The notes beneath the pieces were generated by a model. The model was not told where the DNA came from. It saw only the letters and a program-made list of their open reading frames with translations, and did no database searches. Shown one piece after another: positions 6,688-23,923 of a stretch of DNA of 32,000 bases. The translations under genes were made by a program, and so were the position numbers. Positions within the stretch are counted from its first letter, which is position 1. Each line of letters opens with the position of its first letter. The stretch is from Bdellovibrionales bacterium (GTDB taxonomy: Bacteria; Bdellovibrionota; Bdellovibrionia; Bdellovibrionales; UBA1609): NCBI GenBank assembly GCA_963692945.1, contig OY843585.1, positions 390,001 through 422,000 on the forward strand, read 5' to 3'.

Positions 6688-6734
6688 AGTTTTTTCCTAA
6701 ATTGTTCTAGCAAAGAGATAAAATCTCAGCTTTC

Positions 6735-6763: not shown

Positions 6764-6799
6764 TGTAGGTCTGAAGTCAACGAAGGGAGGTGATTTTTT

Positions 6800-6994
6800 A
6801 TGCCAAAAATAAAATTAAGAGAAGGTGATAGCTTAGAATATGCTCTTCGTAGATTTAAGAAAACTTGTGAAAAACTGGGTATTTTATCAGAAATAAAAAA
6901 ACGAGAATATTATGAAAAACCTAGTATTGTAAAAAAGAAAAAATCTATCGCGGCTAGAAAACGATCCAACAAAAAAGTAAGTCGCAGAGTTTAG
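6800..6994 (+). CDS. rpsU: 30S ribosomal protein S21
   Basis: [42 protein letters not shown] plus a basic tail; SD GGGAGGTG upstream. Confidence 0.95.
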
Positions 6995-7020
6995 TGTTAC
7001 TTTAGAAAGAAGGTCTTCTT

Positions 7021-7476
7021 ATGTCTGCCCAAGAAAAAATTTTAAAAGATATAAAGAGCAGTGTAAAAAATAAAGAGAAAAAAGTACTAAAAGTTTTGCG
7101 ATTTTTACAGGCTGCTATTAAAAATAAAGAGATTGAGTTACGTCCTAATCCTTTAAAGGATGAAGATGTTCTGGCTGTTATCAAAAAACAAGTGAAACAG
7201 ATTCAAGAATCTATAGAGTGTTATAAAAAAGCGGAAGGACATCAAGAACAGGTAGAGGAAGAAGAGTATAATCTTTCTGTTGTGAGAAAATATCTTCCTG
7301 AACAAATCTCAGAAGAAAAGATTAAATCTATTGTTCAAGAAGTTATTAACGAGTTGAAGCCTGAATCCATGAAAGATATGGGTTCCGTAATGAAGGCCTC
7401 TATGGCAAAAGCAAAAGGTGGAGCGGATGCTAAACTTTTGTCTCAAATTGTGAGAGATCATCTTCAAAATTTATGA
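7021..7476 (+). CDS. yqeY: GatB/YqeY domain-containing protein
   Basis: 151 aa; L.AAIKNKEIE and the MGSVMKASMAKAKGGADAKLLSQIV tail are typical of YqeY. It sits between rpsU and dnaG. Confidence 0.85.
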   Translation: MSAQEKILKDIKSSVKNKEKKVLKVLRFLQAAIKNKEIELRPNPLKDEDVLAVIKKQVKQIQESIECYKKAEGHQEQVEEEEYNLSVVRKYLPEQISEEKIKSIVQEVINELKPESMKDMGSVMKASMAKAKGGADAKLLSQIVRDHLQNL

Positions 7477-9269: not shown

Positions 9270-9305
9270 TTTTATTTTTTAAAGTAAAAATACTGGAGTG
9301 TAATT

Positions 9306-11111: not shown

Positions 11112-11214
11112 TTGCATAAAAAAGAAATACATGAATCACAATAAAAATTTCTTTAATAAAGACAGGGATACAAAAGTTTTAAGTATTTTAAAAGTGTTAT
11201 GGTGATGGTTTTAA

Positions 11215-11291
11215 GGGGGCTTAGCTTAGTTGGTTAAAGCATCCGGCTCATAACCGGAGGATCGAAGGTTCGAGTCCTTCAGCCCCTACCA
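11215..11291 (+). tRNA. tRNA-Met (anticodon CAT), encoded CCA; a lysidine-modified tRNA-Ile2 cannot be excluded
   Basis: Hand-folded cloverleaf. Acceptor gggggct/agcccct (G1-U72 wobble), D stem gctt/aagc, anticodon stem tccgg/ccgga with loop CTCATAA, T stem gaagg/ccttc with loop ttcgagt, then A73 and CCA. It lacks the three consecutive G-C pairs of an initiator. Confidence 0.9.
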
Positions 11292-11294
11292 CTT
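11269..11294 (+). repeat. att-like direct repeat copy A (3' end of tRNA-Met plus 3 nt)
   Basis: ttcgagtccttcagcccctaccactt; identical 26-mer at 13314-13339 and an 18-nt core at 16011-16028. Confidence 0.85.
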
Positions 11295-11435
11295 GCCTCT
11301 TGAAACCCCTATGTTACTTAGCTTTTATGTTCTATTTTTTCACTCGCTGTGATTTGTCTGGAATGAGCGTGAAACTGCGGGAAATTCTGGGGAAAAACAT
11401 GGTTGTTAGTTATTGATTTTACTTAGTTTTTTCCG

Positions 11436-11467
11436 TTTTTCTAGGTTTTTATAAAACCCTTTTGTCA
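11436..11467 (+). repeat. 32-nt direct repeat R32, copy 1
   Basis: tttttctaggtttttataaaacccttttgtca, identical to 15979-16010, where it directly abuts att copy C. Confidence 0.85.
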
Positions 11468-11514
11468 CGTCTAAATAGTAGTGACTGCTGTTACATCCCG
11501 TTACATGTCTTAAC

Positions 11515-11589
11515 CTATTGAAATAACTAGGTTTTTAATGAATTTCTAGCTATAAAAATGTGGAGAAATTACATAAATTATGCCCAAAA
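11515..11589 (+). repeat. imperfect ~75-nt direct repeat, copy a (orphan gene-tail relic)
   Basis: Aligns with 11718-11793 (ctattGaaataaCtagGtttttAatgaatttct..cataaattatgcccaaaa). On the minus strand it ends in ..FWA-stop, like the real C-terminus of the 473-aa gene. Confidence 0.7.
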
Positions 11590-11717
11590 AGACATTTTTT
11601 TATATTTTAAATATTTTTTCTTAAAACCCAGCCTAACTTTCAAAAGCCTATAGCCTATATTTACAGTTAATTTGAATTTAAAGGCTTAAATAACATTGGT
11701 TTCTTACATACTTTGAT

Positions 11718-11793
11718 CTATTAAAATAATTAGATTTTTGATGAATTTCTGGGCTACTATATAAATATAAAATCATATAAATTATGCCCAAAA
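11718..11793 (+). repeat. imperfect ~75-nt direct repeat, copy b (overlaps the 3' end of the 473-aa CDS)
   Basis: See copy a. It covers the stop codon and last codons (..PFWA-stop) of CDS 11782-13203 plus its downstream flank. Confidence 0.7.
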
Positions 11794-13203
11794 TGGAATA
11801 TAAGAGCTATTGTCATTTTTCTTTTTTATCATTTGATATTCTATAGATTCTCTGATTACTTTAGACACCATTGTATATTTTTTTTCTTCTACTCCAAATC
11901 TTTTTCTTAAAGTTGTATTAGTCATTTTTTTATCTGAAACCCATTGCAAACACGCATGTTGGTAACAAGCTCTTACTCGTTCTTCTTTACTCATTTTAGA
12001 AAACGGCTTTGTTGCAAAAAGAGTTGTAATTGTAGAAAATTGAGTTTTACGAAAATCTGGAGCAGGTAACTGATAAAGTTCGGTTTGTGTAATAACTTTA
12101 TCTATACCACTTCCACGTTTTTCAGAGATATTTATTCTCCTCATAAAATCTACAAGTAATTCATTTCTTGATTTAGAAGGTTCATCTATAAAACGAAGAG
12201 TGTCAATAAGTGGTGTACCAGCATTAGAAATATCAATTCTGTTAGAGAATATTTCAATCATTGGGTTAGAACCTTGAAGATAAAAATCTTGATGTATAAG
12301 AGCATTAGCCACAAGTTCTCGAACAGCAGGTAAAGGAAACATTGATACTTCTTGTCTTAAAGCTCTTTTAATTTCTTCATTTTTGGGAACTTGGCTATCA
12401 ATATATTCAACTATGTTTTCAAATTCTATAGCATACCCTCGTTTAAAATGTTTTTCCCTTACTCCCTTAGTTTTATCAGAGCCAGCATAAACAATCACTC
12501 TTGGCACTTTATGCCTAAGAGAGTGAAAATGACCTAAGTCATGGCTGAACAAAAGTGCACCTAAATTTGTTATACTATAATTACTAAAGCTATTTTTTGT
12601 GACGATTTTTTCAGTTTCTAAACGTTCTAATATAGAAGCATGATTTTCTGGAATAGTTTGGTTAATTTTTCTAAAGTAGTTTGAATAGTCAATAAGATTT
12701 AAAACTTCAGAAGGTTCTATATTTCCAAGAGCTATATCTTCTTCAAAAGTTTTAGTTTCAAAGACTTTCCAAAGATTTCTTTCTTTTTCAGGATAATCTT
12801 TTAATTTTTTTGTGTAGCTACCGACACGAATATAATCAGTTTCTTTAAATCTTGTAGGTTGTATTCTTGCTGGGGAAATTTTAAAAATCACAATTCTTTT
12901 TGCATCAATAATTTCTTCGTGAATAGAAAAATTTATCTGAGATCCAAGTAATTTTAAAAGCCAATTTTCTAATTCTTCATTACCAACTTTATATTCTTTA
13001 GGTTTGAAATTAGTTCCAATAAATTGTTTATTATTATCAACACCCCATACTATATAACCCTGACCTTTATTTAATAAAGTTACTGTATTTGAAATAGCTG
13101 ATATGTTTTCTCCTATAGTATCAGGTTCAATATTGTCTTTTTTAAACTCTAACCATTCAGATTCTGAAGATTTAATAAGAGATCTAATTTGTAATTCAGT
13201 CAT
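11782..13203 (-). CDS. AlbA_2 (Schlafen-like) / HATPase_c_4 / C-terminal wHTH putative transcriptional regulator (RecG-like ATP-binding protein family)
   Basis: N-terminal SESEWLEFKKD..IGENISAISNT..GQGYIVWGVDN matches the AlbA_2 pattern. AVRELVANALIHQDFYLQGSNPMIEIFSNRIDISNAGTPL matches the HATPase_c_4 pattern. The C-terminal TNTTLRKRFGVEEKKYTMVSKVIRESIE looks like a wHTH. Confidence 0.7.
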   Translation of the reverse strand: MTELQIRSLIKSSESEWLEFKKDNIEPDTIGENISAISNTVTLLNKGQGYIVWGVDNNKQFIGTNFKPKEYKVGNEELENWLLKLLGSQINFSIHEEIIDAKRIVIFKISPARIQPTRFKETDYIRVGSYTKKLKDYPEKERNLWKVFETKTFEEDIALGNIEPSEVLNLIDYSNYFRKINQTIPENHASILERLETEKIVTKNSFSNYSITNLGALLFSHDLGHFHSLRHKVPRVIVYAGSDKTKGVREKHFKRGYAIEFENIVEYIDSQVPKNEEIKRALRQEVSMFPLPAVRELVANALIHQDFYLQGSNPMIEIFSNRIDISNAGTPLIDTLRFIDEPSKSRNELLVDFMRRINISEKRGSGIDKVITQTELYQLPAPDFRKTQFSTITTLFATKPFSKMSKEERVRACYQHACLQWVSDKKMTNTTLRKRFGVEEKKYTMVSKVIRESIEYQMIKKKNDNSSYIPFWA

Positions 13204-13313
13204 AGCACAATCTTTATACTCTCTTTTACTTTCTAGTTTAAGTTTTATTACAATGGTTTTTCAATTTCTATAAAATCTAATTTTTTGTTTAAAGGGTTAT
13301 TAACTAAAATCTC

Positions 13314-13339
13314 TTCGAGTCCTTCAGCCCCTACCACTT
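13314..13339 (+). repeat. att-like direct repeat copy B
   Basis: Perfect 26-nt copy of 11269-11294. No cloverleaf upstream, so this is a tRNA 3' fragment only. Confidence 0.85.
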
Positions 13340-13383
13340 TGATTTGTAACTTTATTATCTTCATAGATAGAAAAGCAAAAATT

Positions 13384-13713
13384 TTAGTCCAGTACTCCAT
13401 CCATCCAAAGAAAGAATCGCTCGGATATTGTTAAATGGTGAGCAGGGTTATCTTTTAAGAACTGAGCTGTTTTCCGATGACCATTCCAATAAGCCAAATA
13501 AAAAGCTGTGACAGTCTCATCTCGTTTAGCATTCACATCAGCTCCTTCATTAATTAATTTTTCAACAGTGTCTAATTGACCAGTGTAAGAAGCTAATAAT
13601 AAATCTTTGTTTCTATCATTTTGAATAGTATTTTCTTGAATAGTTTGGCGTGATTTAGGAAAAGCTTGAAATATTCCAGAAAAAATAAATAGTAATATCA
13701 ATAGTTTTTTCAT
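13384..13713 (-). CDS. small secreted ankyrin-repeat protein
   Basis: Signal peptide MKKLLILLFIFSGIFQAFP, then LLLASYTGQLDTVEKLINEGADVNAKRDETVTAFYLAYWNGHRKTAQFLKDN, which fits the ankyrin consensus (..G..D.V..Li..GADvNa.. / ..a...Gh...a..L). Confidence 0.7.
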   Translation of the reverse strand: MKKLLILLFIFSGIFQAFPKSRQTIQENTIQNDRNKDLLLASYTGQLDTVEKLINEGADVNAKRDETVTAFYLAYWNGHRKTAQFLKDNPAHHLTISERFFLWMDGVLD

Positions 13714-13763
13714 AAAATCCTCCGTTTTAGAGATAATATTTAGAGGTAATAAATTTTTTTAGC

Positions 13764-14087
13764 TTAGTCTTTTATGCTCTTGAATGCCATGTAACAATTT
13801 CCAACTCCAATTGATAATAATATTGCTCCAAGATAGGGTGAAGCAGAATTCGCCATTTCGAGACCCATAACCGACGCTCCGAGACCAAGATTAAATCCTC
13901 CAACAGTTGCTGCAAATACCCCCACACCAACCTGAAACCCAGGTTTGTCCATAAGTTGGTTAATTGCATCTGTGGTTGATTGATTCTTCTCTATACTTTG
14001 ACTTTCAGATGCATTAGAAAAACCAAGAGTTGGAAATCCAACGGCAAAAACAAAAGCGAATAAATAAGTAAAAAGTTTAAATTTCAT
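13764..14087 (-). CDS. secreted glycine-zipper small protein, paralog 1 (107 aa)
   Basis: Start moved to the ATG at 14087, preceded by SD AAGGGGG. Sec signal MKFKLFTYLFAFVFAVGFPTLGFS, then a Gly/Ala-rich mature part with GxxxG-type spacing (GVGVFAATVGGFNLGLGASVMGLE..YLGAILLSIGVGNCYMAFK). Paralogs at 16484-16828 and 16947-17295. Confidence 0.65.
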   Translation of the reverse strand: MKFKLFTYLFAFVFAVGFPTLGFSNASESQSIEKNQSTTDAINQLMDKPGFQVGVGVFAATVGGFNLGLGASVMGLEMANSASPYLGAILLSIGVGNCYMAFKSIKD

Positions 14088-14199
14088 TGAGAACCCCCTT
14101 TGATTAAATAACTCAATATACATTGAATACTAAATGAAAGTAGAAATGTAAAGCGGAACTTTCAGAAGAAAGCCTTTAAAATAAGGCTTTTTTTAGTTT
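14016..14199 (-). repeat. conserved 5' module of the glycine-zipper cassette, copy 1 (promoter + leader + signal-peptide coding)
   Basis: About 184 nt, near-identical to 16757-16940 and 17224-17406. On the minus strand it holds TTTACA-17 nt-TATTCA and SD AAGGGGG. Its upstream end carries a hairpin, aaagcctt/aaggcttt (14169-14190), which reads as a T-tailed terminator on the plus strand. Confidence 0.8.
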
Positions 14200-14426
14200 G
14201 TGTCCTGAAAATCAGCCCAAAATATGTCAGAAGACTTCAGAAGAAATCTCTCTAAAGTGAGATTGTAAAAAATTGTTTCTCTAAAATCTTTATAGTTTTT
14301 AAAAATGGCAGAATCTGTTTTTTTCTGCCGTATCTCTATTTAACAACGCAACAACTTTAGCATACTTTTCTGTCATATAATTCAGAACAAGATTCAGAAA
14401 TTCATAAAAAAGTACTTTTTTTGTAG

Positions 14427-14451
14427 AAATACCTTAAAAATTAAGGTATTT
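14427..14451. promoter_or_regulatory. perfect palindrome, candidate AbiEi operator
   Basis: aaataccttaa-aaa-ttaaggtattt: 11-bp arms, 3-nt spacer. The half-site taaggtatttt recurs at 14494-14504, overlapping the abiEi SD. A TATAAT hexamer sits at 14476-14481. Confidence 0.45.
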
Positions 14452-14507
14452 TAAAGAAAAATGTTTAAAATAATGTATAATTATATTAAAATCTAAGGTA
14501 TTTTGAA

Positions 14508-15074
14508 ATGAAAGCTTATAAAAAACTACATCAAATCACTTTTAAACAAGGTGGACTTTTTACAGCTAAACAAGCTGAATCTTGTGGATATGCACGAAGC
14601 AATCATCATTATCATATCAAAACAAAAAACTGGATTAAAGAGGGCTGGGGAATTTACCGACTGGCTCACATTCCAGTTGATGAGATGACTTTTTACTGGA
14701 AATGTCTTTTGTGGAGTTGCAACAACAAAAGTGAACCTACAGCTGTTTTTTCCCATAGAACAGCCTTGAGTTTTTATGAGTTATCTGATGTTAATCCCAG
14801 TAAAGTCACAATGATAGTTTCTAAAAAATTTCAAAAACGATCCCAACCTTTTAAGATGCTACGAATATGTAAAAAGGATTTGTCAAAAAAAGATGTTCAA
14901 CAGTTTAAAGGACTTCCTGTTACAACACCTTTAAGAACATTGCTGGATATGTATGAAGAAGAATCTCTTCCTGAGAGTGTTATGGAACAGGCTGTGAAAG
15001 AAGCATTGGAAAAAGGTCTCATTAGAAAATCTGATCTCAAAAAAAACTCTGAACTAGCGAGGTTTTCTCTTTGA
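14508..15074 (+). CDS. abiEi: type IV toxin-antitoxin system AbiEi-family antitoxin
   Basis: N-terminal wHTH pattern GGLFTAKQAESCGYARSNHHYHIKTKNWIKEGWGIYRLA. 4-nt overlap with the downstream AbiEii gene. Confidence 0.75.
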   Translation: MKAYKKLHQITFKQGGLFTAKQAESCGYARSNHHYHIKTKNWIKEGWGIYRLAHIPVDEMTFYWKCLLWSCNNKSEPTAVFSHRTALSFYELSDVNPSKVTMIVSKKFQKRSQPFKMLRICKKDLSKKDVQQFKGLPVTTPLRTLLDMYEEESLPESVMEQAVKEALEKGLIRKSDLKKNSELARFSL

Positions 15075-15940
15075 AACCTGTAGATAAATATAAAACTGCG
15101 GCAGACTTCCGTAGGGCTGTAAAAAACAAATTGAATGAGATCAGTCAGAATACAGGACAGGATATTCAAAGACTTTATCGTCAAACATCCTATGTTCAAT
15201 TTTTAGCAAGGCTATTTTTAGATGATAATGTTTCTTGGGTATTAAAAGGAGGTCACGCTTTAGAGTTAAGATTGCAAAAATCCAGAGCAACAAAAGATAT
15301 TGATTTAGCTATGAAAGATATGGAATGGATTCATTTCAAAAAAGAGGAAAAATCATCTGCTCTTAGAGAACTGCTTTTGGAAAAATCTCAAATAGACCTT
15401 GAAGATTATTTTCAATTTAAAATTTCTAAACCTATTTTATCTTTGTATGGTGCTCCTTATGGTGGAATTAGGTTTCATATTGAAGCAATGATTGATGGTA
15501 AAACATTCAGTAAATTTTTAATAGATATTGGTATTGGGGATGCTTGGATAGAACCTCAGGACACTCTTCAATTATTAAGTCATTTGGAAGAACTAGGTTT
15601 AAAAAACTTTACAATAAAAGTTATTCCTATTGAGCATCATATCGCTGAAAAAATACATGCTTTAACTCTTCCACGAGATGCGGTTAACTCCAGAGTTAAA
15701 GATCTAGTTGATTTATTTTTAATATTTAAATTTGAGAAGTTTTCCAAAGAGAAGACCAAGGATTGTATAAAAGAAACTTTTATTAAAAGGAATACTCATA
15801 AAATTCCTATAAAGCTTCCACTTCCAAATGTATCATGGGAAAAACCTTTTAATAGTATGGTGGATTCGATTGACGAAAAAATCACTATGCATGAAGCTTT
15901 TAAGATCGTTAATCAGTATTTTAAATCTCATTTGTCCTAA
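15071..15940 (+). CDS. abiEii: AbiEii/AbiGii-family nucleotidyltransferase toxin
   Basis: TTG start overlapping the abiEi stop. FLARLF..WVLKGGHALELRL..SRATKDIDLA is the DUF1814/AbiEii nucleotidyltransferase signature. 289 aa is the typical size. Confidence 0.85.
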   Translation: MKPVDKYKTAADFRRAVKNKLNEISQNTGQDIQRLYRQTSYVQFLARLFLDDNVSWVLKGGHALELRLQKSRATKDIDLAMKDMEWIHFKKEEKSSALRELLLEKSQIDLEDYFQFKISKPILSLYGAPYGGIRFHIEAMIDGKTFSKFLIDIGIGDAWIEPQDTLQLLSHLEELGLKNFTIKVIPIEHHIAEKIHALTLPRDAVNSRVKDLVDLFLIFKFEKFSKEKTKDCIKETFIKRNTHKIPIKLPLPNVSWEKPFNSMVDSIDEKITMHEAFKIVNQYFKSHLS

Positions 15941-15978
15941 TTTCATCTTGATCTTAAGAAAATTAAAACCTTTATAGT

Positions 15979-16010
15979 TTTTTCTAGGTTTTTATAAAAC
16001 CCTTTTGTCA
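15979..16010 (+). repeat. 32-nt direct repeat R32, copy 2
   Basis: Identical to 11436-11467; immediately followed by att copy C. Confidence 0.85.
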
Positions 16011-16028
16011 GTCCTTCAGCCCCTACCA
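16011..16028 (+). repeat. att-like direct repeat copy C (18-nt core)
   Basis: gtccttcagcccctacca, identical to 11275-11292 within the tRNA 3' end. Confidence 0.8.
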
Positions 16029-16123
16029 TTTTCAAAACTCTAGTTCTTCTCTTCTTACTTTTTGAGTTTTCATCGTAAGAGGGACACTCTTTTACAAAAC
16101 TCTCGTTCAAAAAAATATTTCCT

Positions 16124-16187
16124 ACTCTTATTCTAACGAGTTTTCATCGTAGGAGGGATACTCTTCAAATCTCGTTAGAATAAGAGT
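16124..16187. repeat. 17-bp perfect inverted repeat (long stem-loop)
   Basis: actcttattctaacgag (16124-16140) and ctcgttagaataagagt (16171-16187), separated by 30 nt. The loop contains the second copy of the gagttttcatcgta(a/g)gaggga(c/t)actctt motif. Confidence 0.8.
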
Positions 16188-16214
16188 TACTTAATAGGTT
16201 TATTGTGTGAACGA

Positions 16215-16380
16215 GAGAAAACCTACTGGTTTTCGCATGAGTGAGGCAGAGAAAACCTACTGGTTTTCTTTCGCATGTAATGAGGTAGGAAAAACTTCTG
16301 TTTTTCGCATGTGGGGACGCTCTTCAAATCTCGTTAAAATAAAAGTTTTAACATAGAGAAAAACTTCTGTTTTTCGCATG
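16215..16380. repeat. array of four short hairpin repeats (GAAAAYC-tNct-GRTTTTC-GCATG)
   Basis: Hairpins at 16217-16234 and 16251-16268 (gaaaacc-tact-ggttttc) and at 16289-16306 and 16358-16375 (gaaaaac-ttct-gtttttc). Three are followed directly by gcatg; in the second, four extra nucleotides precede it. The C-G to A-T change in the stem is compensated. Spacing is irregular (34, 38, 69 nt). Confidence 0.8.
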
Positions 16381-16483
16381 AGTGAGCGAAAGATAAATGA
16401 TTTTAAGAGAAACCTTTTGAGAGCTTAAAAACCCAACTAAAAAGGAACTTACAAACTTAATAAAAATAAAATAATTTACTAAT

Positions 16484-16828
16484 CTACAACGGGAGAGCTT
16501 TTTTAGCTTTCATCCCTTGACCCTTGAATACATTATAACACATCTGTATTCCAAGTGTAGCAAGTAAGGTTCCCATTGTTGCCTGTATTACTGGTAACAC
16601 AACAGGCATGCTCGAACCTAATTCTATTGCTATTACTCCTGCTGTTGCAAAACCCATCGAACCTACCCCTGCACCTATAGCTCCTATCCCTAAAAGTTTA
16701 TTCGCTGTGGAAAGTTTTTCTTCTTTTTCAACTGTATCTTTTTTTTCAGATACATCAGAAAAACCAAGAGTTGGAAATCCAACGGCAAAAACAAAAACGA
16801 ATAGATAAGTAAAAAGTTTAAATTTCAT
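16484..16828 (-). CDS. secreted glycine-zipper small protein, paralog 2 (114 aa)
   Basis: Start at the ATG at 16828 behind SD AAGGGGG. Signal MKFKLFTYLFVFVFAVGFPTLGFS, then a divergent Gly/Ala-rich mature region LLGIGAIGAGVGSMGFATAGVIAIELG..TLLATLGIQMCYNVFKG. Confidence 0.65.
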   Translation of the reverse strand: MKFKLFTYLFVFVFAVGFPTLGFSDVSEKKDTVEKEEKLSTANKLLGIGAIGAGVGSMGFATAGVIAIELGSSMPVVLPVIQATMGTLLATLGIQMCYNVFKGQGMKAKKALPL

Positions 16829-16940
16829 TGAGAACCCCCTTTGATTAAATAACTCAATACACATTGAATACTAAATCAAAGTAGAGATGTAAAGAGGAAC
16901 TTTCAGAAGAAAGCCTTTAAAATCAAGGGTTTTTTAGTTT
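16757..16940 (-). repeat. conserved 5' module of the glycine-zipper cassette, copy 2
   Basis: Near-identical to 14016-14199. Putative promoter on the minus strand: -35 TTTACA (16893-16888), 17-nt spacer, -10 TATTCA (16870-16865). Confidence 0.8.
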
Positions 16941-16946
16941 AGTTTT

Positions 16947-17295
16947 TTATTCCTTGAATGCCAAGTAACAACCTATAGCTCCAGCTGATAATCCTACTGT
17001 TGCTCCAATTGTATAGAATAAAGAAGGTTCCACATGCGGCAGTACGATACCAAGATAGGGTGCAACAGAATTCGCCGTTTCGAGACCAAGATATGCCGCT
17101 CCGAGACCAAGATTAAATCCTCCAAATGCCCCCGCACCCAAAAGAAACAGTTTTTTCCATAAGGTGGTTAATTTCATCTACGGTTGATTGATTCTTCTCT
17201 ATACTTTGACTTTGAGATTCATTAGAAAAACCAAGAGTTGGAAATCCAACGGAAAAAACAAAAACGAATAAATAAGTAAAAAGTTTAAATTTCAT
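16947..17295 (-). pseudogene. glycine-zipper small protein paralog 3, frame disrupted in an A6 run
   Basis: ORF-track entries 17113-17295 (signal peptide + linker) and 16947-17177 (GGFNLGLGAAYLGLE..CYLAFKE) are the two halves of one paralog of 13764-14087. The frames switch at T6/A6 (17151-17156). Removing one A gives a continuous 115-aa ORF (..INHLMEKLFLLGAGAFGGFNLG..). Confidence 0.7.
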
Positions 17296-17406
17296 TGAGA
17301 ACCCCCTTTGATTAAATCAACAACAAAACTATGTATTTAATACTAAATCAAAGTAGAGATGTAAAGAGGAACTTTCAGAAGAAAGCCTTTAAAATCAAGG
17401 GTTTTT
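17224..17406 (-). repeat. conserved 5' module of the glycine-zipper cassette, copy 3
   Basis: Near-identical to the other two modules, except for a substituted ~20-nt stretch in the leader (17318-17338). Confidence 0.75.
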
Positions 17407-17551
17407 CAATATTATTACTCATTAATGCAGGGTGTTTTTATTTAAAAGAGTAGTCTTTCTTAAGAGCTATTTATCCCGATTATCAAAAACAGATATCTTA
17501 AGAATTGAAAAAATATTTTAAGAAATCTTTTTGAAAAAATTAAAATTTATT

Positions 17552-18889
17552 TTATAAAAAATTAGATTTACAACCAGATCTATCTAAAGAAAATAGATCT
17601 TTGATTTGGTTATAAAGTTCTGTCCCTTTTTTATGATTTTGTTGTTTGGATTTTTCTGTCCAATAAAAAGCAGTTTGAAAATTTTGTACAACTCCTTCAC
17701 CATTGTAATACATCAACGCCAACCTGTATTGAGCAAAAGGATAATTTTGCTGAGCCGCTTTTTCAAACCATTTAAGAGATTCTTCTAAATTTTTTGGGAC
17801 ACCTTCGCCATTGTAATACATCAATGCCAATTCAGATTGGGCGATCACATAACTTTGTTCGGCTGCTTTTTTAGTGTATTCAAAAGCGGTTTCTAAATTT
17901 TTTTGGACACCTTTGCCTTTGTAATACATCCATCCCAACCAATGTTGAGCAGGAGCATAATTTTGCTCAGTTGCTTTTTTAATCCATTTAAAAGATTCTT
18001 GAAAATTTTGTGTTACTCCTTCACCAAAATAATACATTATTCCCAAATCATATTGAGCAGGAATATAATTTTGTTCGGCTGCTTTTTTTAAATATTTAAA
18101 AGCTTCTTCTAGATTTTTATTTACTACTGCACCTGCATAATGTATCTGTCCAAGATTGTATGTAGCCAGAACATCATTTTCTTTAACCCTATCTTCTAAT
18201 TGATTTAAAAATTCTTTTTTGCATTGGAGGAAACTTTTATTGCAATCTTGCTTTATCATTTTTGTAATGACTTCTTTGAGACGAATTATTTTTGTCATAG
18301 ACCCTATGTAATTTTCGCTTTTAAAATGCACTCCAACAACTTGCCCTTGCTTGTCTAAAACAGGACTCCCACTTGCCCCCCTTAAAGGATAATGACTTAT
18401 AGGGTAAGAATATAAATAATTATCTTTATAAATAGCATCTCCTGTTTTCCTTACTCTTTTAAAAAGACCATCGGGATAACCAGAGATAAAAAGATTTTCA
18501 TTGGTTTCCACAGGTTCTTCTCTTAGCTTGAGATAGTCGTTGGAAGATTCTTTTGTTTCAATAAGAGCAAGGTCATGTAATGCAAAGACAGCAAGAATTT
18601 TTTTTACATGTATCTTAGAGAGATGATCTTTTTGAGTGAGATGGATTTCTTGTTCCTTAGAGTCTTTTAATAAATAATCTATCACATGAAAGTTTGTGAT
18701 GAAATGATTTGGACTTATAAAGAATCCTGTTCCACCAAAAAGCTTTGAAGTTTTTAGACTCCATATTGCTCTTTCTACTTTTGAAAGATAAGTTTCAAGA
18801 GCTGAGAGTTGAGCCTTTTGAGGTAAAATATTTTGAGCGAAAGATAGAACAGAAAAACTCAACAAAAGAAAAACAATAAAAAATTTCAT
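17552..18889 (-). CDS. secreted trypsin-like (S1) serine protease fused to C-terminal Sel1 (SLR/TPR-like) repeats
   Basis: Signal MKFFIVFLLLSFSVLSFA. Catalytic triad contexts GTGFFISPNHFITNFHV (His), HDLALIE (Asp) and GASGSPVLDKQGQVVGVH (Ser). These are followed by about five Sel1 units (e.g. AQYDLGIMYYFGEGVTQNFQESFKWIKKATEQNY). Confidence 0.8.
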   Translation of the reverse strand: MKFFIVFLLLSFSVLSFAQNILPQKAQLSALETYLSKVERAIWSLKTSKLFGGTGFFISPNHFITNFHVIDYLLKDSKEQEIHLTQKDHLSKIHVKKILAVFALHDLALIETKESSNDYLKLREEPVETNENLFISGYPDGLFKRVRKTGDAIYKDNYLYSYPISHYPLRGASGSPVLDKQGQVVGVHFKSENYIGSMTKIIRLKEVITKMIKQDCNKSFLQCKKEFLNQLEDRVKENDVLATYNLGQIHYAGAVVNKNLEEAFKYLKKAAEQNYIPAQYDLGIMYYFGEGVTQNFQESFKWIKKATEQNYAPAQHWLGWMYYKGKGVQKNLETAFEYTKKAAEQSYVIAQSELALMYYNGEGVPKNLEESLKWFEKAAQQNYPFAQYRLALMYYNGEGVVQNFQTAFYWTEKSKQQNHKKGTELYNQIKDLFSLDRSGCKSNFL

Positions 18890-19029
18890 ATAACAACCTT
18901 TATTAAAAGGAGTTACATAATTAACACATACTAAGATAAAATCAATTTTTTTAGGGAATTATATATGTACTCACCCTAAAAAACCTCTTTTTTTCTAGGC
19001 AAACGATAATAAAATAATAAGCTATTAAA

Positions 19030-20052
19030 CTACAGCTGGTATTCAAAACCGATGGAAACCATCGGATTGCTGCTGAAAGAGTTTCCTTTATAGAAAAGAT
19101 TTTTAGGACATACTACTTTATTTTTTTCTTCAGCTTTAGGAAAAATAGGTCGGTTAATTCCAGAAATAACATTACATTGTGCTTTGGCTCGACTAAATGG
19201 AACAAGACTGACTTCAACTGTTGAAGCAAGATGTTTTGTCCACCAGTATTTAGCTCCAACGAAAACCTGAAAATATTTTAATACAGTTGCTCCAGACCCT
19301 TTTCTGTAGGGGCCAGATAAATCTGTTTCTTCTACTGTTTCATTTTCATCACTCACCTGTAATTCATTGTTCACTTGTAATACATCATTTAATCCTATTT
19401 TTTCTACTCCTACTTCTTCTACTGTTTCTACTGATTCATTATCATGTCGCCAACCTAGATCAGATGATCTTGATGCTTTTCTACCAAAAAAAATGTCAAA
19501 CACTTTAAGGATACTGGAGACACTTTTAACTATACCATCTTCCATATCTTCAAAACTAAACACTTCTGTATGTCTTACTCCCCCAAAGGGTTCAAAGACT
19601 TTCTTATTTTTTAATTTCATTTTATGACTCGCTAAAAGAGCTCCACTGAGATAACCTCTTGCTAATGAAAAAAATAGAGATTCCCCTGTAGGAGGATCTC
19701 CTTTTATATATCCAGTTCCTAAAGAACCCCCAAAAGACCAACCCATTTTTTGATTATTAACAGGAGCATATTTCAATTGAAGTCCTATGTTTTCTGGAGA
19801 TTCCATTTGAATTCCTATATCTACATTATTTAAAACCCCATAATCATATCTTAATTGTCCTATTGCATTGTAGGTTATGTTGTTTGGACCTTGTTTTAAG
19901 GTGGTAGGGAGTGGATTTAACGATGCTCTTACACTGTGATTTCGTTTTCCAAGAGTACGCGCTGTATCTCCGTTTGAAACAGGACCAATGGGTTCTAACT
20001 GAACACAACCTAAAATAAATAAACTTAATAAAATTAAAAGATATTGTTTCAT
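19030..20052 (-). CDS. hypothetical lipoprotein, possibly outer-membrane beta-barrel-like
   Basis: Lipobox MKQYLLILLSLFILGC. Alternating beta-strand-like segments, an acidic insert (DNESVETVEEVGVEKIGLNDVLQVNNELQVSDENETVEETD) and a C-terminal ..VSIGFEYQL. Confidence 0.55.
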   Translation of the reverse strand: MKQYLLILLSLFILGCVQLEPIGPVSNGDTARTLGKRNHSVRASLNPLPTTLKQGPNNITYNAIGQLRYDYGVLNNVDIGIQMESPENIGLQLKYAPVNNQKMGWSFGGSLGTGYIKGDPPTGESLFFSLARGYLSGALLASHKMKLKNKKVFEPFGGVRHTEVFSFEDMEDGIVKSVSSILKVFDIFFGRKASRSSDLGWRHDNESVETVEEVGVEKIGLNDVLQVNNELQVSDENETVEETDLSGPYRKGSGATVLKYFQVFVGAKYWWTKHLASTVEVSLVPFSRAKAQCNVISGINRPIFPKAEEKNKVVCPKNLFYKGNSFSSNPMVSIGFEYQL

Positions 20053-20129
20053 GAATTCTCCTTATTTTTGAAGTTAATCTATTATAGATAGGAGAATGGC
20101 CTTTTTTTGTCAATTGTTTTTTTAAGGCT

Positions 20130-21824
20130 TTAGAAAACTTGTCTACATAAAACTCTATTAGGTGCACCATAATTAGTTTTTCTGTTTTTTGATTTTTGAG
20201 ATAGACTTTGTGTTTCTAAATTTTTTAAGGTTCTTGCTCTTTTAACTAATTTTTTATTTCCAATAGTCCTTAGGAAATAGCTATTTAAGATTTTTAAGAT
20301 ATTTCTACCTTCAGTTTGTTTTTTATTTGATAAAATGGATGTCCATTTTGGAACATGATAGAGATTTTGAGCCAATGTTTGATCTAGTACAAGTAAGAAT
20401 AAAGATTTTACTTGTCTCACTGGTTTCCAGTTTTTATTTATGAGATATAAAAGTTCATTATCTTTAACTTTTAAATTGGAACTGATTTGTGGGGAATAAA
20501 TTTTTTTATGTCTTTTTAAAAGATTGGCAAGAGAAAAATATAAGCTTTCAAGTTCTTCCCCTGTGACATACAAGGTGTGTACATTTTGATTCTTTGGGTA
20601 AAAAGTGCTTATTAAATTAGAATCAATCAATGTTTTTTCCCTAATAAAATCATTTCTTTGATAAAGGTTACTATCTAAAAAAACAGCTATATAGGTTTTA
20701 GTTTGATAAATCTTTTCCATGGGAATTTCTCTATAAGCCCATAGCCTTAATGTCTCTGCTAATAGAGTTCCTAAAATGGTTCTCCGATTTAAAAAGGCTT
20801 TTCTGTTATCCATCAAATGTCTTGGAATGAATTTATTAGATTGAAATCTTTTATATTCAATAGCATGAACAACGGGTTTAATTTTATCAGTGATTATTTT
20901 AGACTCTAAACTTGTCTCATCTATTTTACTAAGTAAATATCTTCTTTTTTCTTGATCATAAAAAGTGCTATCTATAATTTGACCTTCATCATCTAAAAGG
21001 ACAGAAGTGAAATTAAAAAAATCTCCAGAGCTAATCATCCGTGAATTTCTGAATTCTATATTTTTTACAGCATGATGATGTCCTAAAAAGATGGCAGAAA
21101 TTTTATGAGTCATGTCCTCAGAACAACATCTCAATTTACGATCTAATTTTTTAAAATGATTACTTACAGCTGAAGATCCTTCGTGAAAAGCTAACACCAG
21201 AGAAGAGATCAAAGAATTTTTATGAGTCTCTTTGATTACACTGTAAAGTCTTTCTTCAATGGGATAAAAACTTGTAAAAACTTTTGGTTTTAAATATTTA
21301 TTCCATCCACTTTTTTGAGGAAAATTGGATAAAGTGAATCCAGCAAAACGAACCGATTTCTCCCCCAGAGGAATATCTACAAATTTTGCAAAAAGATTTT
21401 TAAATTTGTGAACAAAATTGGCATTGGCGGCTAAAAGGTGTACTCCTGCCTCTTTCAACAAACTCATTTGATTTATAAATAAATTTGTATCCTTCCAGTC
21501 AAAAGCTTCGTGATTTCCAAATACAAAAACCACTTCATATTTTTGAGCCAATTGACTTAGAACCTCATAACCCAGCTGACCTTTGTCTCCCTCAGTCCAA
21601 ATGCTTTTTGAAGAATAGTCCCCGTTAATTAAAATCAGCACTTTACCATTAGGGTAGGAGCTTTTAAACTCCCGAGATAAAACTTCAACAGAAGCTACAA
21701 AACTCATCATTTGTCTGTATTCAGAGTGTTGATCAGAACTTTGGATGACCAACAGTTCAGCAAAGACATAAGAGTGAAAGGAAAATAAGAAATAGAGTAA
21801 AATGCTAATACTAGATAATTTCAA
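20130..21824 (-). CDS. secreted calcineurin-like metallophosphoesterase (5'-nucleotidase-like N-domain)
   Basis: Motifs SDQHS, NGDYS, GNHEAFDW and LGHHH. The ORF-track start (21905) gives an odd N-terminus. TTG at 21824 gives (M)KLSSISILLYFLFSFHSYVFA, a good signal peptide. The start is uncertain. Confidence 0.7.
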   Translation of the reverse strand: MKLSSISILLYFLFSFHSYVFAELLVIQSSDQHSEYRQMMSFVASVEVLSREFKSSYPNGKVLILINGDYSSKSIWTEGDKGQLGYEVLSQLAQKYEVVFVFGNHEAFDWKDTNLFINQMSLLKEAGVHLLAANANFVHKFKNLFAKFVDIPLGEKSVRFAGFTLSNFPQKSGWNKYLKPKVFTSFYPIEERLYSVIKETHKNSLISSLVLAFHEGSSAVSNHFKKLDRKLRCCSEDMTHKISAIFLGHHHAVKNIEFRNSRMISSGDFFNFTSVLLDDEGQIIDSTFYDQEKRRYLLSKIDETSLESKIITDKIKPVVHAIEYKRFQSNKFIPRHLMDNRKAFLNRRTILGTLLAETLRLWAYREIPMEKIYQTKTYIAVFLDSNLYQRNDFIREKTLIDSNLISTFYPKNQNVHTLYVTGEELESLYFSLANLLKRHKKIYSPQISSNLKVKDNELLYLINKNWKPVRQVKSLFLLVLDQTLAQNLYHVPKWTSILSNKKQTEGRNILKILNSYFLRTIGNKKLVKRARTLKNLETQSLSQKSKNRKTNYGAPNRVLCRQVF

Positions 21825-22096
21825 AAAACCTTCTTTTAAGATGAAAGTGCATCTAATTGGAATTCTATTCGGTTTTAGATAGAGTTTAAATAAGATAATA
21901 ATCAAGATGCATCATTTTAAATGAGAATCAGAAAAACGAGATGTTTTTTGAATATTTTGTTAAGTCAGTGCTTATATTTTTGTCTTTTTTTTAAAATATC
22001 TTAAAAAAAGGGTTGAATAAAATAGGAGCTACCTTCTAAGTTTATTTGCATTTGAATAGGGAAAATTCAAAGCAATGATGGATGTTTTTGTATTTC

Positions 22097-22561
22097 TTAA
22101 TCTTCAATTCTAACCCAAAACTTATTTATAGAATTGGAATTATCTTTGAAAGATATTTTTACTTGGATAGGGAAAGATCTCCAAGCGAGAACATTGAGTT
22201 TTTTTATTTCAATCGGAAATTTCTGATGAAGAGGAAGATAGTGACCCTTAAAAAAACTCCATTCCACTTTTTTGACTTGTTTTTCATTGATAGAATCAGA
22301 GACAGAAAGTGTGACCAAGACTTGAGGATAAAGGAGGTGTTTTTTTATCCATTCAGGAAGATATGAACTACGAAGTGACTTTTTTGTGATTTCCACTTCA
22401 TTTCCTTTATAAGTAACAATAGGAGGAGGTCTAATTTTATGACTTAAATCATGAAATGGAGGTACTTTTTGTATAACAGTTACAACTTCTTCTATGGGAG
22501 ATTCTAAACTCAAGCTAGAAAAAGGACTTAAAATAAAAAATAATAAAAGAATGTATTTCAT
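22097..22561 (-). CDS. hypothetical secreted protein, tandem paralog A
   Basis: Start moved to the ATG at 22561 (SD GAGGT; one nucleotide, 22562, separates it from the upstream stop codon). Signal MKYILLLFFILSPFSSLS. The C-terminal half aligns with paralog B (VKKVEWSFFKGHY.P..VLAWRSFPIQVKISFKDNS versus VKAVEWEFFEEYYFP..VTAWQPFAVGMKLSFEDNS). Confidence 0.6.
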   Translation of the reverse strand: MKYILLLFFILSPFSSLSLESPIEEVVTVIQKVPPFHDLSHKIRPPPIVTYKGNEVEITKKSLRSSYLPEWIKKHLLYPQVLVTLSVSDSINEKQVKKVEWSFFKGHYLPLHQKFPIEIKKLNVLAWRSFPIQVKISFKDNSNSINKFWVRIED

Positions 22562-22562
22562 T

Positions 22563-23099
22563 TTACCTCGGATCAAGTTCAATCCAAAGCAGATGTGCTT
22601 CAAAAGAATTGTCTTCAAAACTTAACTTCATTCCAACTGCAAAAGGCTGCCAAGCAGTGACTTCAATTTGTCTGGTGTTAATTGGATGATATTGTGAGCT
22701 GGAAGGAAAATAATACTCTTCAAAAAATTCCCATTCAACAGCTTTCACATGTTTTCCGTTGAAAAAATAAGGAGCTAAAAGTGTGATGATTCTTTTTTGT
22801 TTGTGTATAGTAATATGTTGCCAGAATCTGGTAATCTCTAAAGGTGTTCGATTGATCTTGATAATCCCATCGGGGCTTCTACTCCTTGCTTGCACAAGAT
22901 CTTCTATGAGATTCTTATACGAGTCAGGAAGCAAAGGCTTACCTTGTTTAATCTTAATAATGGGAGAGTCTTTTAAATCCTCTTCGGTTGGATAGAGTGC
23001 AACATAAGAATCTGAAGAATCTGAAACATCTTTAGTTGAATGTACGCCCCAAGAAAAAGGACTTAAAATAAAAAATAATAAAAGAATGTATTTATACAT
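22563..23099 (-). CDS. hypothetical secreted protein, tandem paralog B
   Basis: Start moved to the ATG at 23099 behind SD AGGAG. Signal MYKYILLLFFILSPFSWGVHS. The signal-peptide DNA is almost identical to that of paralog A (22520-22560 versus 23058-23098). Confidence 0.6.
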   Translation of the reverse strand: MYKYILLLFFILSPFSWGVHSTKDVSDSSDSYVALYPTEEDLKDSPIIKIKQGKPLLPDSYKNLIEDLVQARSRSPDGIIKINRTPLEITRFWQHITIHKQKRIITLLAPYFFNGKHVKAVEWEFFEEYYFPSSSQYHPINTRQIEVTAWQPFAVGMKLSFEDNSFEAHLLWIELDPR

Positions 23100-23305
23100 G
23101 GTATCTCCTGTAAATAAGTTTTTATATGTATAAATGTTTTTCTTCACAATATCAAATGAAAATATTATAGTTTTCCTGATTTATAGATGTTTTTTCAATT
23201 TTTTAAGGGTTTTTAAGTCAAAAAATAAAAAAATGTTAAGTAATAGGTTATAATTTTACTATTAACAGGCAGGCTTTTATTCCATTTCTAATTTTTCTTT
23301 TTACA

Positions 23306-23827
23306 ATGGTTGCTTCTTTAGCCTACGGAGAAACGACTTATCTTTCTTGTTCTGTGAATAATGGTGCAGATATGCTTATTTCTTATAAGCAAGAGAAAGA
23401 TAAAATTCTTTATCTTGGAGGTCTTGTTCATTCTCGTAAACCACAGCTTATGGGGAGAAAAGATCATTTTGTGTATTTTATTTGGAAAAATCATCCAGAG
23501 AATCCAAACCATAGCTACACTATTGAAAGAATAGAATTTTCTAAGAAGATCATCTTTATCCGGTCTCATGTTTTCATAGATGATGTGGTCATTCACAAAA
23601 AAAGAAAAGAAGAGGCTAAACACAATCCCTACTCTTTTATTAATCCTAAAAGATATAAAAAAGTTTATAATCCTAATTTATTGAAACTCATTCCCTATCG
23701 TTTGAAAAAAAACGAACGAGCTTTTGCTTTTGACCGAGATCATTATCCCTGTAAAAGACTTTCTTATTTTATATATCTCTTAAGAATCCCTTTGAATATT
23801 TTGGCTCAAATTGGATTTTCAGGTTAG
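23306..23827 (+). CDS. hypothetical protein (start uncertain)
   Basis: 173-aa ORF with no recognised motifs. The in-frame upstream sequence would complete a signal peptide (see findings). Confidence 0.45.
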   Translation: MVASLAYGETTYLSCSVNNGADMLISYKQEKDKILYLGGLVHSRKPQLMGRKDHFVYFIWKNHPENPNHSYTIERIEFSKKIIFIRSHVFIDDVVIHKKRKEEAKHNPYSFINPKRYKKVYNPNLLKLIPYRLKKNERAFAFDRDHYPCKRLSYFIYLLRIPLNILAQIGFSG

Positions 23828-23923
23828 GTAGAGAATTAGTAAAATGAGTTTTAGAAACTGACTTTAGAACAAGAACCTGGATTAAAACAGGCAACCTTTT
23901 TTTAAAGATATAGACAAAAAAAT

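Follow-up and report, generated by a model that had tools for sequence, protein, structure and literature searches.

Two integrase-less islets between three copies of a tRNA-Met 3' end in an uncultured Bdellovibrionales lineage, probable relics of serial site-specific integration

Comparable systems at the 3' ends of small-RNA genes

Classical tRNA-linked islands and prophages are integrated by P4-like and related tyrosine integrases, with crossover in the T-loop sublocation of the Williams 2002 classification. The locus analysed here, a tRNA-Met gene and the DNA downstream of it, resembles these islands in four respects: the identity block extends from the T-loop to CCA, the element rebuilds the tRNA, the far boundary carries a displaced 3' end, and relatives lack the element. 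In contrast to the classical islands, which are defined by an integrase gene beside the tRNA, no such gene is present.

CIMEs (cis-mobilizable elements), and the tandem accretion of elements at target-gene 3' ends, are defined in a review that covers Streptococcus (PMC5704250). Like the two islets at this locus, the Streptococcus CIMEs have kept attL and attR but lack genes for integration or transfer; they are arranged in tandem at a tRNA gene 3' end, where the att copy between elements is a chimeric site. The islets differ from them in being far smaller (2.0 and 2.7 kb), in the lack of a recognisable relaxase or oriT relic or of a parent ICE or IME among the comparison loci, and in their host, an uncultured Bdellovibrionales-like bacterium.

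In Dehalococcoides, islands are found in tandem at ssrA, and 15 of them, without integration modules, were proposed as CIMEs (PMC3146451). As at the present locus, multiple islands follow a small-RNA gene in a strain-variable region, each delimited by a direct repeat of about 20 bp of the gene 3' end, and insertion took place within the T-loop. On the element side, a short conserved motif adjoins the repeat and may be compared with a 32-nt sequence (32-mer) found here. Many of the Dehalococcoides islands keep a serine-recombinase module (DsiB) and the enzyme is known, whereas none was seen in six genomes here; their target is tmRNA and their cargo rdhA, whereas the present target is a tRNA(CAT) and the cargo consists of defence genes and secreted proteins. 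The islets are also distinct from integron gene cassettes: IntI is lacking, copies of the tRNA 3' end form the boundaries in place of attC-like imperfect palindromes, both strands carry genes, and AbiE comes with a promoter region of its own. The AbiE pair itself showed no departure from this type IV toxin-antitoxin/abortive infection system, and is cargo and not a mobility mechanism.

Architecture of the locus

The features identified in the window (the whole 32-kb stretch of DNA that was analysed) are listed in Table 1. A single tRNA was called, and it was 98.8-100% identical to the tRNA in L091-L095, L002 and L084. According to the preliminary description of this DNA, a 26-mer from the 3' part of the tRNA gene recurs perfectly, its core is present a third time, and a 32-nt sequence is repeated beside the third copy and downstream of the first. 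The 26-mer, TTCGAGTCCTTCAGCCCCTACCACTT, which begins with the first T-loop base and ends 3 nt beyond CCA, did occur exactly twice, as att1 and att2, against 0 in 100 shuffles. The third copy was also found, but its core (att3, AGTCCTTCAGCCCCTACCA) was 19 nt long from 16010, and not 18 nt from 16011 as first described. Both copies of the 32-mer were perfect and located as reported, and base 16010, the final base of the second copy, also belongs to the att3 core. The att1 and att2 sequences were identical at 26/26 positions, and att2 and att3 at 19/19, or 22/23 with flanking bases. No further att copy was detected on either strand with up to 6 mismatches in 19, and none past 16028. Chance occurrence is not expected for any of the att repeats or for the 32-mer pair.

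Table 1. Coordinates of features in the window
Feature	Position	Strand	Details
tRNA, anticodon CAT (called Met)	11215..11291	+	ARAGORN and Rfam
att1	11269..11294	+	T-loop, 3' acceptor strand, CCA, CTT
Islet 1	11295..13313		2019 nt; GC 28.6%
32-mer copy 1	11436..11467	+	Perfect; 141 nt after att1
Two-copy repeat	11490..11793	-	11500-11590 and 11703-11793, about 203 nt apart
AlbA_2 (Schlafen-like) and HATPase_c_4 protein	11782..13203	-	473 aa; sole islet 1 gene
att2	13314..13339	+	Perfect 26-nt copy, outside any tRNA
Islet 2	13340..16009		2670 nt
Ankyrin-repeat protein	13384..13713	-	109 aa; N-terminal signal-like segment
Gly-zipper-like secreted protein A	13764..14123	-	119 aa; Gly-rich
AbiE module	14405..15941	+	Promoter with inverted repeats, abiEi, abiEii
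abiEi	14508..15074	+	188 aa; PADLOC 5e-56
abiEii	15071..15940	+	289 aa; overlaps abiEi; PADLOC 4e-75; Pfam AbiEii 1e-34
32-mer copy 2	15979..16010	+	Abuts att3; probable element-side arm of attR
att3	16010..16028	+	19-nt core, then TTTTCAAAAC; ancestral tRNA 3' end and flank
Rest of variable interval	16029..23915		Without att marks
Hairpin-repeat zone	16064..16420
Gly-zipper paralog B	16484..16864		Outside att3
Gly-zipper paralog C	16947..17295		Frameshifted; outside att3
Trypsin-Sel1 protein	17552..18889

For att1 and att2, the identity block opens with the first T-loop base, and for att3 with the last three bases of the T-loop; in each case it continues through CCA, the pattern expected for crossover in the T-loop. 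No T-stem-like symmetry around the T-loop was found in the sequence left of att2. Following CCA, the trinucleotide was CTT at att1 and att2 and TTT at att3. As the flanks of the three att copies are unrelated to each other, tandem segmental duplication was excluded as the source of att2 and att3. Similarity of the two 32-mer arms ran approximately 14 nt further left, to about 11415, with an 8-nt indel. A function of the 32-mer as a terminator was considered and rejected (weak hairpin, z = -0.6, no significant fold).

The 19-mer is not a dispersed repeat, a possibility that had been raised for the 26-mer in the preliminary description: a metagenome-wide scan located it essentially in tRNA-Met genes only. 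One match (L082) was dismissed as chance, being inside a long ORF without tRNA context. In one further genome (L083), a 29-nt direct repeat was present 222 nt downstream, and in L084 the stretch from the tRNA to a degenerate tRNA copy holds a toxin-antitoxin pair. Neither the 19-mer nor the 32-mer occurred in viral contigs.

Relatives, recombinase searches and cargo

Five close relatives (L091-L095, uncultured Bdellovibrionales with RpoD 77-89% identical) were obtained from an RpoD homolog search. A scan of RpoD in GTDB representatives returned distant genomes only (59% or less), which are useless for empty-site comparison. The left flank, alaS to rpoD plus tRNA-Met, was collinear up to the tRNA in all five relatives, and the right flank, hmgA to rnhA, was collinear from hmgA onward in L091 and L092; the contig edge of L095 reaches only the start of hmgA. 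Nucleotide identity in the collinear flanks was 80-86%. In every relative the att core was present as a single copy (the tRNA itself), the islet genes were absent from the tRNA-Met locus, and CCA was followed by TTT, as it was also in L002 and L084. The presence of TTT in the relatives and at att3, and of CTT at att1 and att2, identifies att3 as the displaced original tRNA end, in agreement with the prediction of the attL/attR model. These observations favour the earlier reading of the repeats as boundaries of attL/attR-type integration.

Alignment with related genomes had been proposed in the preliminary description as a check, and its outcome supports integration: the islets were absent and the core single in 5/5 relatives. 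As a qualification, the right flank was variable and no exact empty site was found among them, because the DNA right of att3 (up to hmgA) is also strain-specific. The tRNA plus flank of L091 matched window positions 16010-16037 with 96.6% identity over 29 nt, with only about 10 nt of the flank right of att3 included in the match. Between L093 and L094, which are one species (97.3% identical), homology ended 4 nt past the tRNA. Homology of the window to the relatives restarted at approximately 23916, in hmgA. The tRNA-Met to hmgA interval is 12.6 kb here and 3.4-9.6 kb in the relatives, and in L092 it holds a stray 64-nt hmgA fragment. The whole interval is hypervariable. The islets adjoin a tRNA gene, have direct-repeat copies of its 3' end as boundaries and show presence/absence polymorphism among relatives, with an immediate right flank that is itself variable beyond about 10 nt. 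Beyond att3, the interval also encodes a lipoprotein-like 340-aa ORF, which begins with a lipoprotein-type signal, a metallophosphatase and small unknown ORFs.

No recombinase domain was detected in any ORF of at least 90 aa in the window (Pfam, PHROGs, NCBIfam, PADLOC), consistent with the preliminary description of the islets, and no relaxase or transfer domain in any ORF searched. The non-coding gaps of the islets (487, 110, 44, 50, 384 and 69 nt) are so short that there is no room for an integrase pseudogene. PHROGs and PDB sequence searches for a recombinase hidden among the unknown ORFs were negative, and for the 340-aa ORF a single-sequence AlphaFold model was of no use (pLDDT 31). The integrase that marks one end of tRNA-linked islands was lacking in the islets, in the 12.6-kb interval and in the 32-kb window. 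It was likewise absent from the tRNA-Met intervals of all six genomes (window plus five relatives) and from the L100 islets described below, so that the recombinase can only be inferred.

The gene content of both islets was as first described. The composition of islet 1 was atypical (tetranucleotide distance 0.298, compared to 0.197 +/- 0.022 for equally long core chunks), and that of islet 2 was indistinguishable from the core (0.182, compared to 0.169 +/- 0.02). Homologs of the AlbA_2 protein with 61-65% amino acid identity were found in L097 and L098, in defence or transposon contexts. Each copy of the repeat in islet 1 combines the final 12 nt of the AlbA_2 gene with a conserved motif of about 50 nt, which accompanies AlbA_2 genes in other genomes.

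In islet 2, an AbiEi antitoxin/regulator adjoins an AbiEii nucleotidyltransferase toxin (Pfam, PADLOC). The AbiE span showed 83% nucleotide identity to L099 and L100 within exactly the limits given in Table 1, which differ from those of the islet, and in L100 the module lies within islets that lack an integrase and have three copies of a tRNA-Val 3' end as boundaries. AbiEii was 76-81% identical in genomes with RpoD only 62-72% identical. Apart from the AbiE module, no arm sequences were common to the window and the L100 islets. AbiE behaves as a discrete and independently mobile module. No AbiEii relatives were found among viral contigs, no homolog of the Gly-zipper, ankyrin or other variable-region proteins in any comparison locus, and no Rfam match in the islets or the hairpin-repeat zone. 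Neither islet was found elsewhere as a unit among the comparison loci; only modules recur, and the islets are mosaics of independently mobile modules. The Gly-zipper gene of islet 2 had 86-94% nucleotide identity to its two paralogs beyond att3; integration from outside would then need either a donor that is closely related or a later duplication or gene conversion. The hypervariability of the interval, the modularity of the cargo and the two Gly-zipper paralogs outside att3 are additions to the preliminary description.

Origin of the two islets

The islets are probably CIME-like relics of two serial site-specific integrations at the tRNA(CAT) 3' end. This 3' end would serve, in an uncultured lineage of the Bdellovibrionales, as a hotspot of site-specific integration at which two integrative elements, each with an attP carrying the tRNA T-loop-to-CCA segment, would have been inserted one after the other. 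Each integration would have remade the tRNA from the copy of the element and displaced the earlier 3' end outward, to give the order tRNA/att1, islet 1, att2, islet 2, att3 and native flank. The part of the tRNA from the T-loop onward would now be supplied by islet 1 (attL), and att3 would be the original tRNA end. What remains are two small att-bounded segments without integrase or transfer gene, with modular defence and accessory DNA as cargo: a Schlafen/AlbA_2-HATPase protein, the AbiE abortive-infection toxin-antitoxin system, a secreted ankyrin protein and a Gly-zipper protein. We infer that the junctions were made by a site-specific recombinase, of the tyrosine type (T-loop sublocation) or another, whose gene may have been lost or may always have acted in trans; the order of the two events is likewise deduced. 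The atypical composition of islet 1 speaks for two serial integrations. Points against them are the lack of an integrase, of an exact empty site and of either islet as a unit elsewhere, the mismatch of module and islet boundaries, the host-like composition of islet 2, the close Gly-zipper paralogs outside att3 and the missing T-stem-like symmetry left of att2.

An unlikely alternative to two integrations is that a pre-assembled composite (islet 1, att2 and islet 2) was integrated once, with att2 already inside it as a relic from the donor. Whole tandem CIME/ICE composites are known to move (PMC5704250), the 32-mer is found close to each outer end (141 nt inside att1, and next to att3), like the arm-type sites of one attP, and CCACTT is present at both element-derived flanks. 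However, the 26 nt common to att1 and att2, against only 19 shared with att3, fit pairwise events better, the composition differs between the two islets, and none of the relatives has a one-islet or two-islet state. Homologous recombination following DNA uptake, in the conserved flanks to the left (rpoD/tRNA) and right (hmgA), with the att copies incidental, for example as local duplications of the tRNA end, is highly improbable. It would accord with the good conservation of the core flanks, with the variation of the entire 12.6-kb interval, most of which is without att marks or integrase, and with the hmgA fragment inside the L092 interval. Yet such replacement makes no serial direct repeats of the exact T-loop-to-CCA segment, the unrelated sequences around the att copies exclude tandem segmental duplication, and the L093/L094 breakpoint lies 4 nt after the tRNA and not within the flanking genes; by itself, flank recombination already fails to account for the att repeats.

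It is quite unlikely, though in keeping with several features, that the islets are functional integrase-less cassettes, still excised and reinserted at tRNA 3' ends by a recombinase whose gene lies elsewhere (on the chromosome, a phage or an ICE), and so shuffling defence modules between tRNA sites. The att copies are perfect over 26/26 and 19/19 nt though att2 and att3 are free of tRNA constraint, the AbiE-bearing tRNA-Val locus of L100 has a like architecture without integrase, and the tRNA-Met intervals of six genomes lack an integrase yet turn over even within a species. In addition, the 32-mer is shared by the arms on either side of a hypothetical att1 x att3 excision product. Against this, neither islet recurs whole, the window and L100 having only AbiE and no arms in common; the viral contigs lack the 19-mer and 32-mer; no circular or alternative-site copy was seen among metagenome matches; and a recent event would also leave perfect short repeats. 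The broader proposal, that tRNA-end cassettes without integrase are a working system in the Bdellovibrionales lineage, in which one or a few recombinases acting in trans would insert, stack and swap defence modules, AbiE among them, at several tRNA genes (tRNA-Met here, tRNA-Val in L100), is very doubtful. If true, this cassette system would act like an integron with tRNA ends as attachment sites.

As relics of serial integration, the islets would be the ordinary scar of a double integration at a known type of hotspot, and the known picture of how such islands form is unchanged by this locus. The att copies supply exact coordinates for annotation and for excision tests. The locus would represent a cleanly delimited case of tandem accretion behind a tRNA gene, from an uncultured and little-studied lineage that is predatory or host-associated and in which the tRNA-Met to hmgA interval is a strain-level hotspot that gathers defence genes (AbiE and the Schlafen-like ATPase).

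The tRNA gene and its repeated 3' end

A single tRNA was called at the locus by ARAGORN and Rfam, and the 'Met' label assigned by ARAGORN was based on the anticodon alone. In this gene G1 pairs with U72 and position 73 is A; the anticodon stem does not have the three successive G-C pairs that are typical of initiator tRNAs. It could be an elongator tRNA-Met or a tRNA-Ile2 (lysidine).

Three direct copies of the 3' end of this tRNA (att1, att2 and att3) bound two segments, islet 1 (AlbA_2/HATPase_c_4 gene) and islet 2 (ankyrin, Gly-zipper and AbiE genes). The perfect 26-mer described previously at att1 and att2 was confirmed, with two copies in the window vs none in 100 shuffles. The third copy, given in the preliminary description as 18 nt, was also present, with a length of 19 nt (one base more). 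No further copies were detected on either strand when up to 6 mismatches in 19 were permitted. A 32-mer, reported to occur twice, was perfect at both positions: one copy adjoins att3 on the element side, and the other lies 141 nt inside att1. The likeness between the two reaches approximately 14 nt more to the left if an 8-nt indel is permitted. A conserved motif abutting the repeat is comparably found in Dehalococcoides islands (PMC3146451). As a terminator, the 32-mer was not convincing in folding analysis; it is possibly a protein-binding site of the arm type, or else the remnant of an element end.

Coordinates of features at the locus and on related contigs (window positions unless a contig is named)
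Feature	Position	Strand	Remarks
tRNA, anticodon CAT	11215-11291	+	ARAGORN; Rfam tRNA, 73 bits
att1, 26-mer TTCGAGTCCTTCAGCCCCTACCACTT	11269-11294	+	begins with the first base of the T-loop, ends in CCA and CTT
att2, 26-mer TTCGAGTCCTTCAGCCCCTACCACTT	13314-13339	+	second exact copy
att3, 19-nt core AGTCCTTCAGCCCCTACCA	16010-16028	+	
32-mer	11436-11467 and 15979-16010	+	perfect copies
Hairpin-forming repeat array	16064-16420		immediately right of att3
Gly-zipper-like small secreted protein, three paralogs	13764-14123, 16484-16864, 16947-17295		
AlbA_2-linked motif, ~50 nt	11490-11547, 11703-11750	-	
AlbA_2-linked motif, ~50 nt	L097 7701-7736, 9572-9607; L098 6542-6588, 6627-6666		
RNase P RNA, bacterial class A	28373-28705	-	Rfam, 212 bits; adjoins rnhA
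tRNA-Val 3' end, three direct copies	L100 479-496 (18 nt), 5791-5803 (13 nt), 11029-11105		

The CCA is followed by TTT(T) in five related uncultured Bdellovibrionales (contigs L091-L095), and likewise in the more distant contigs L002 and L084; in both att1 and att2 it is followed by CTT. The att3 sequence is TTTTCAAAAC and its L091 counterpart TTTTACAAAAG, and the tRNA end and flank of L091 were 96.6% identical to window positions 16010-16037 over 29 nt. The integration model predicts that attR, the distal repeat, retains the tRNA end and chromosomal flank that were there originally, and that the proximal copies carry sequence from the element. The flanks of the CCA, with att3 like the relatives and CTT at att1 and att2, fit this model, and sequence comparison identifies att3 as the ancestral tRNA end. 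Within the array to the right of att3, strong folds were predicted for 16110-16200 (-28.7 kcal/mol, z = -5.1) and for 16205-16300 (-29.3 kcal/mol, z = -3.0), and Rfam gave no hit. This array is probably the native terminator zone, because the tRNA of relatives (L084, L002 and L091) likewise directly precedes large hairpins. This is consistent with the islets having separated the tRNA from the structures that natively follow it.

Variability downstream of the tRNA

Among GTDB species representatives, the nearest RpoD was only 59% identical, in MAGs labelled Bdellovibrio or Bdellovibrionia. Closer relatives were obtained from a large protein collection (RpoD identity 89, 89, 83, 83 and 77%), and contigs L091-L095 were fetched via these RpoD proteins. 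Core genes precede the tRNA (alaS, recX, a pilT-like ATPase gene, cinA, recA, tadA, yqeY, dnaG and rpoD), and the downstream core starts at hmgA (23924), followed by hppD, a GST/maiA-like gene, FAH, a 143-aa ORF, the RNase P RNA and rnhA, the last two being collinear in relatives. L091 and L092 aligned to the window at 80-86% nucleotide identity up to the tRNA (positions 1-11291) and beyond approximately 23916. The intervening span is 12.6 kb in the window, 3.35 kb in L091 (a Fic protein and two unknown ORFs), 5.46 kb in L092 (one 1389-aa ORF) and approximately 9.6 kb in L095 (Sel1, ankyrin, trypsin-like and others). The interval DNA of these three contigs had no homology to that of the window, and trypsin/Sel1-type proteins were the only ones to recur between intervals (35-49% amino acid identity). 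The alignment to relatives proposed in the preliminary description supports the integration model: none of the five loci encodes a homolog of the islet proteins, and each has exactly one att core, within the tRNA.

L093 and L094 were 97.3% identical over 3.9 kb (dnaG, rpoD and tRNA-Met), with homology lost 4 nt past the tRNA. The tRNA 3' end thus acts as a breakpoint even between members of one species, and the downstream DNA has been replaced at strain level. Inside the variable interval of L092, 4.6 kb from the real hmgA, a 64-nt piece of the hmgA 3' end (12710-12772; 81% to window 23944-24005) records an earlier rearrangement at the right-hand boundary. Close to the right end of the window's interval, two neighbouring unknown ORFs (173 and 194 aa) contain a perfect 42-nt direct repeat (22517-22558 and 23052-23093, 535 nt apart).

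The 19-mer had no match among 2.9 million viral contigs and matched 10 metagenome contigs, 8 of which were tRNA-Met genes, several with rpoD upstream. The repeat is therefore tRNA-derived and not a member of a dispersed family, the alternative that had been named as fatal to the earlier interpretation. The match in L082 sits within an ORF and was discarded as due to chance. Other lineages likewise show repeated insertion at this tRNA. In L084, the tRNA is followed by a ParE/HTH toxin-antitoxin pair and then by a degenerate copy of the whole tRNA. In L083 (134-432), from a GC-rich organism, a 203-nt segment follows tRNA-Met, and a 29-nt direct repeat 222 nt past the tRNA closes it. The remaining matching contig, L088 (1-272), is related to L083 and carries the same segment and an att core without the tRNA, adjoining toxin-antitoxin-like genes. 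GTTACCTATGTCTYCGG-type repeats beside the segment are in opposite orientation on the two contigs, and the segment is a candidate mini-element or attP-like junction. Inverted partial copies of the tRNA-Met 3' end were observed 150-200 nt downstream of the tRNA in related contigs (L002 12148-12166, L081 1616-1634, L090 2175-2193 and L084 2708-2726), the L002 repeat covering 33 nt, of which 17 nt are past the CCA. No such copy was found in the window. Such copies could represent an inverted att, an insertion of MITE type or a long-range hairpin.

Cargo of the islets

The islet gene list of the preliminary description agreed with domain and gene searches, and its failure to find a recombinase in either islet was reproduced with Pfam, NCBIfam, PADLOC and PHROGs for all ORFs of at least 90 aa across 32 kb; non-coding gaps within the islets were at most 487 nt. 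Compared with equal-length core chunks, the tetranucleotide distance was atypical for islet 1 (0.298 vs 0.197 +/- 0.022) and not for islet 2 (0.182 vs 0.169 +/- 0.02). The right-hand variable region (16029-23915) was also atypical (0.139 vs 0.084 +/- 0.009).

AbiEi and AbiEii were identified by PADLOC (5e-56 and 4e-75). AbiEii was 76-81% identical in genomes whose RpoD was merely 62-72% identical, both proteins being assumed to share a contig from equal sizes (1,892,547; 2,054,090; 1,546,870; 1,894,270; 1,628,343). This greater likeness of AbiEii than of RpoD points to horizontal spread within the clade. Positions 14405-15941 were 83% identical to contigs L099 and L100, with homology ending at the AbiEii stop codon. 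The module lies away from any tRNA in L099, and 158 nt from a tRNA-Val 3' end in L100. The three tRNA-Val-end copies of L100 delimit two segments of approximately 5 kb without an integrase, the module being in the tRNA-proximal one. The copies at 479-496 and 5791-5803 each have 60-65 nt of similar arm sequence, and the similarity between the left arms of copies two and three is 77%. Directly upstream of abiEi, inverted repeats and a 52-nt tandem duplication (14414-14525) are conserved in L099 and L100. AbiEi binds inverted repeats, and this region is probably the autoregulated AbiE promoter/operator.

The AlbA_2/HATPase_c_4 protein belongs to a very widespread family (best matches 61-65% identical, approximately 50% across several phyla), with its closest homologs among HsdR, DarT and transposases in L097, and among GmrSD, NYN and IS481 in L098. 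A motif of approximately 50 nt, AAAAACCTAGTAATTTCAATAGTTTAAnCCATGTAACGGGAnTGTAACTGGAG, accompanies these genes in all three genomes, and its conservation (87-89%) exceeds that of the genes (73-75% nt). The window has two copies, each with the last 12 nt of the AlbA_2 gene, and in L097 the motif occurs on either side of the gene. A role as regulatory site or as cassette boundary is conceivable.

The Gly-zipper paralogs, one in islet 2 and two beyond att3 (the third frameshifted), share 86-94% nucleotide identity, including approximately 76 nt upstream, with conserved N-termini and diverged C-termini. Pfam gave no match for their proteins, and none of the fetched loci contained a homolog. Given this identity across att3, either the donor of islet 2 was a close relative, or islet 2 and the host exchanged sequence once it had integrated.

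Mode of insertion and significance

The att identity blocks begin at the T-loop and end directly past the CCA. In the Williams sublocation scheme, such a footprint is reportedly that of recombinases whose crossover point is the T-loop of a tRNA or tmRNA gene. The insertion position is the same in the Dehalococcoides ssrA islands (PMC3146451). Two insertions would give the order tRNA/att1, islet 1, att2, islet 2, att3, and either segment could have arrived first, or both may have arrived together as a composite. The integrase genes might have been deleted, or the segments might always have been moved in trans. The earlier proposal of two site-specific integrations in series at a tRNA 3' end is supported by the att footprint, the ancestral flank at att3 and the relatives. 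Cis-mobilizable elements (CIMEs) are defined by the absence of integrase and transfer genes and the retention of both att sites (PMC5704250), and by this definition each islet, with no integrase or transfer gene and with both att sites kept, is CIME-like.

The repeat-bounded islets are real, and they are of a well-described kind: CIME-like islands that lack an integrase and have accreted in tandem at a tRNA or tmRNA gene. What is added here is the 12.6-kb hypervariable interval, the assignment of the ancestral tRNA end to att3, a modular AbiE cassette that appears to have spread horizontally, and a parallel tRNA-Val architecture in a related genome. Stacking of integrase-less defence cassettes at tRNA ends by a system acting in trans is a candidate reading that we consider improbable; if true, it would be the sole route to a wider significance of this locus.
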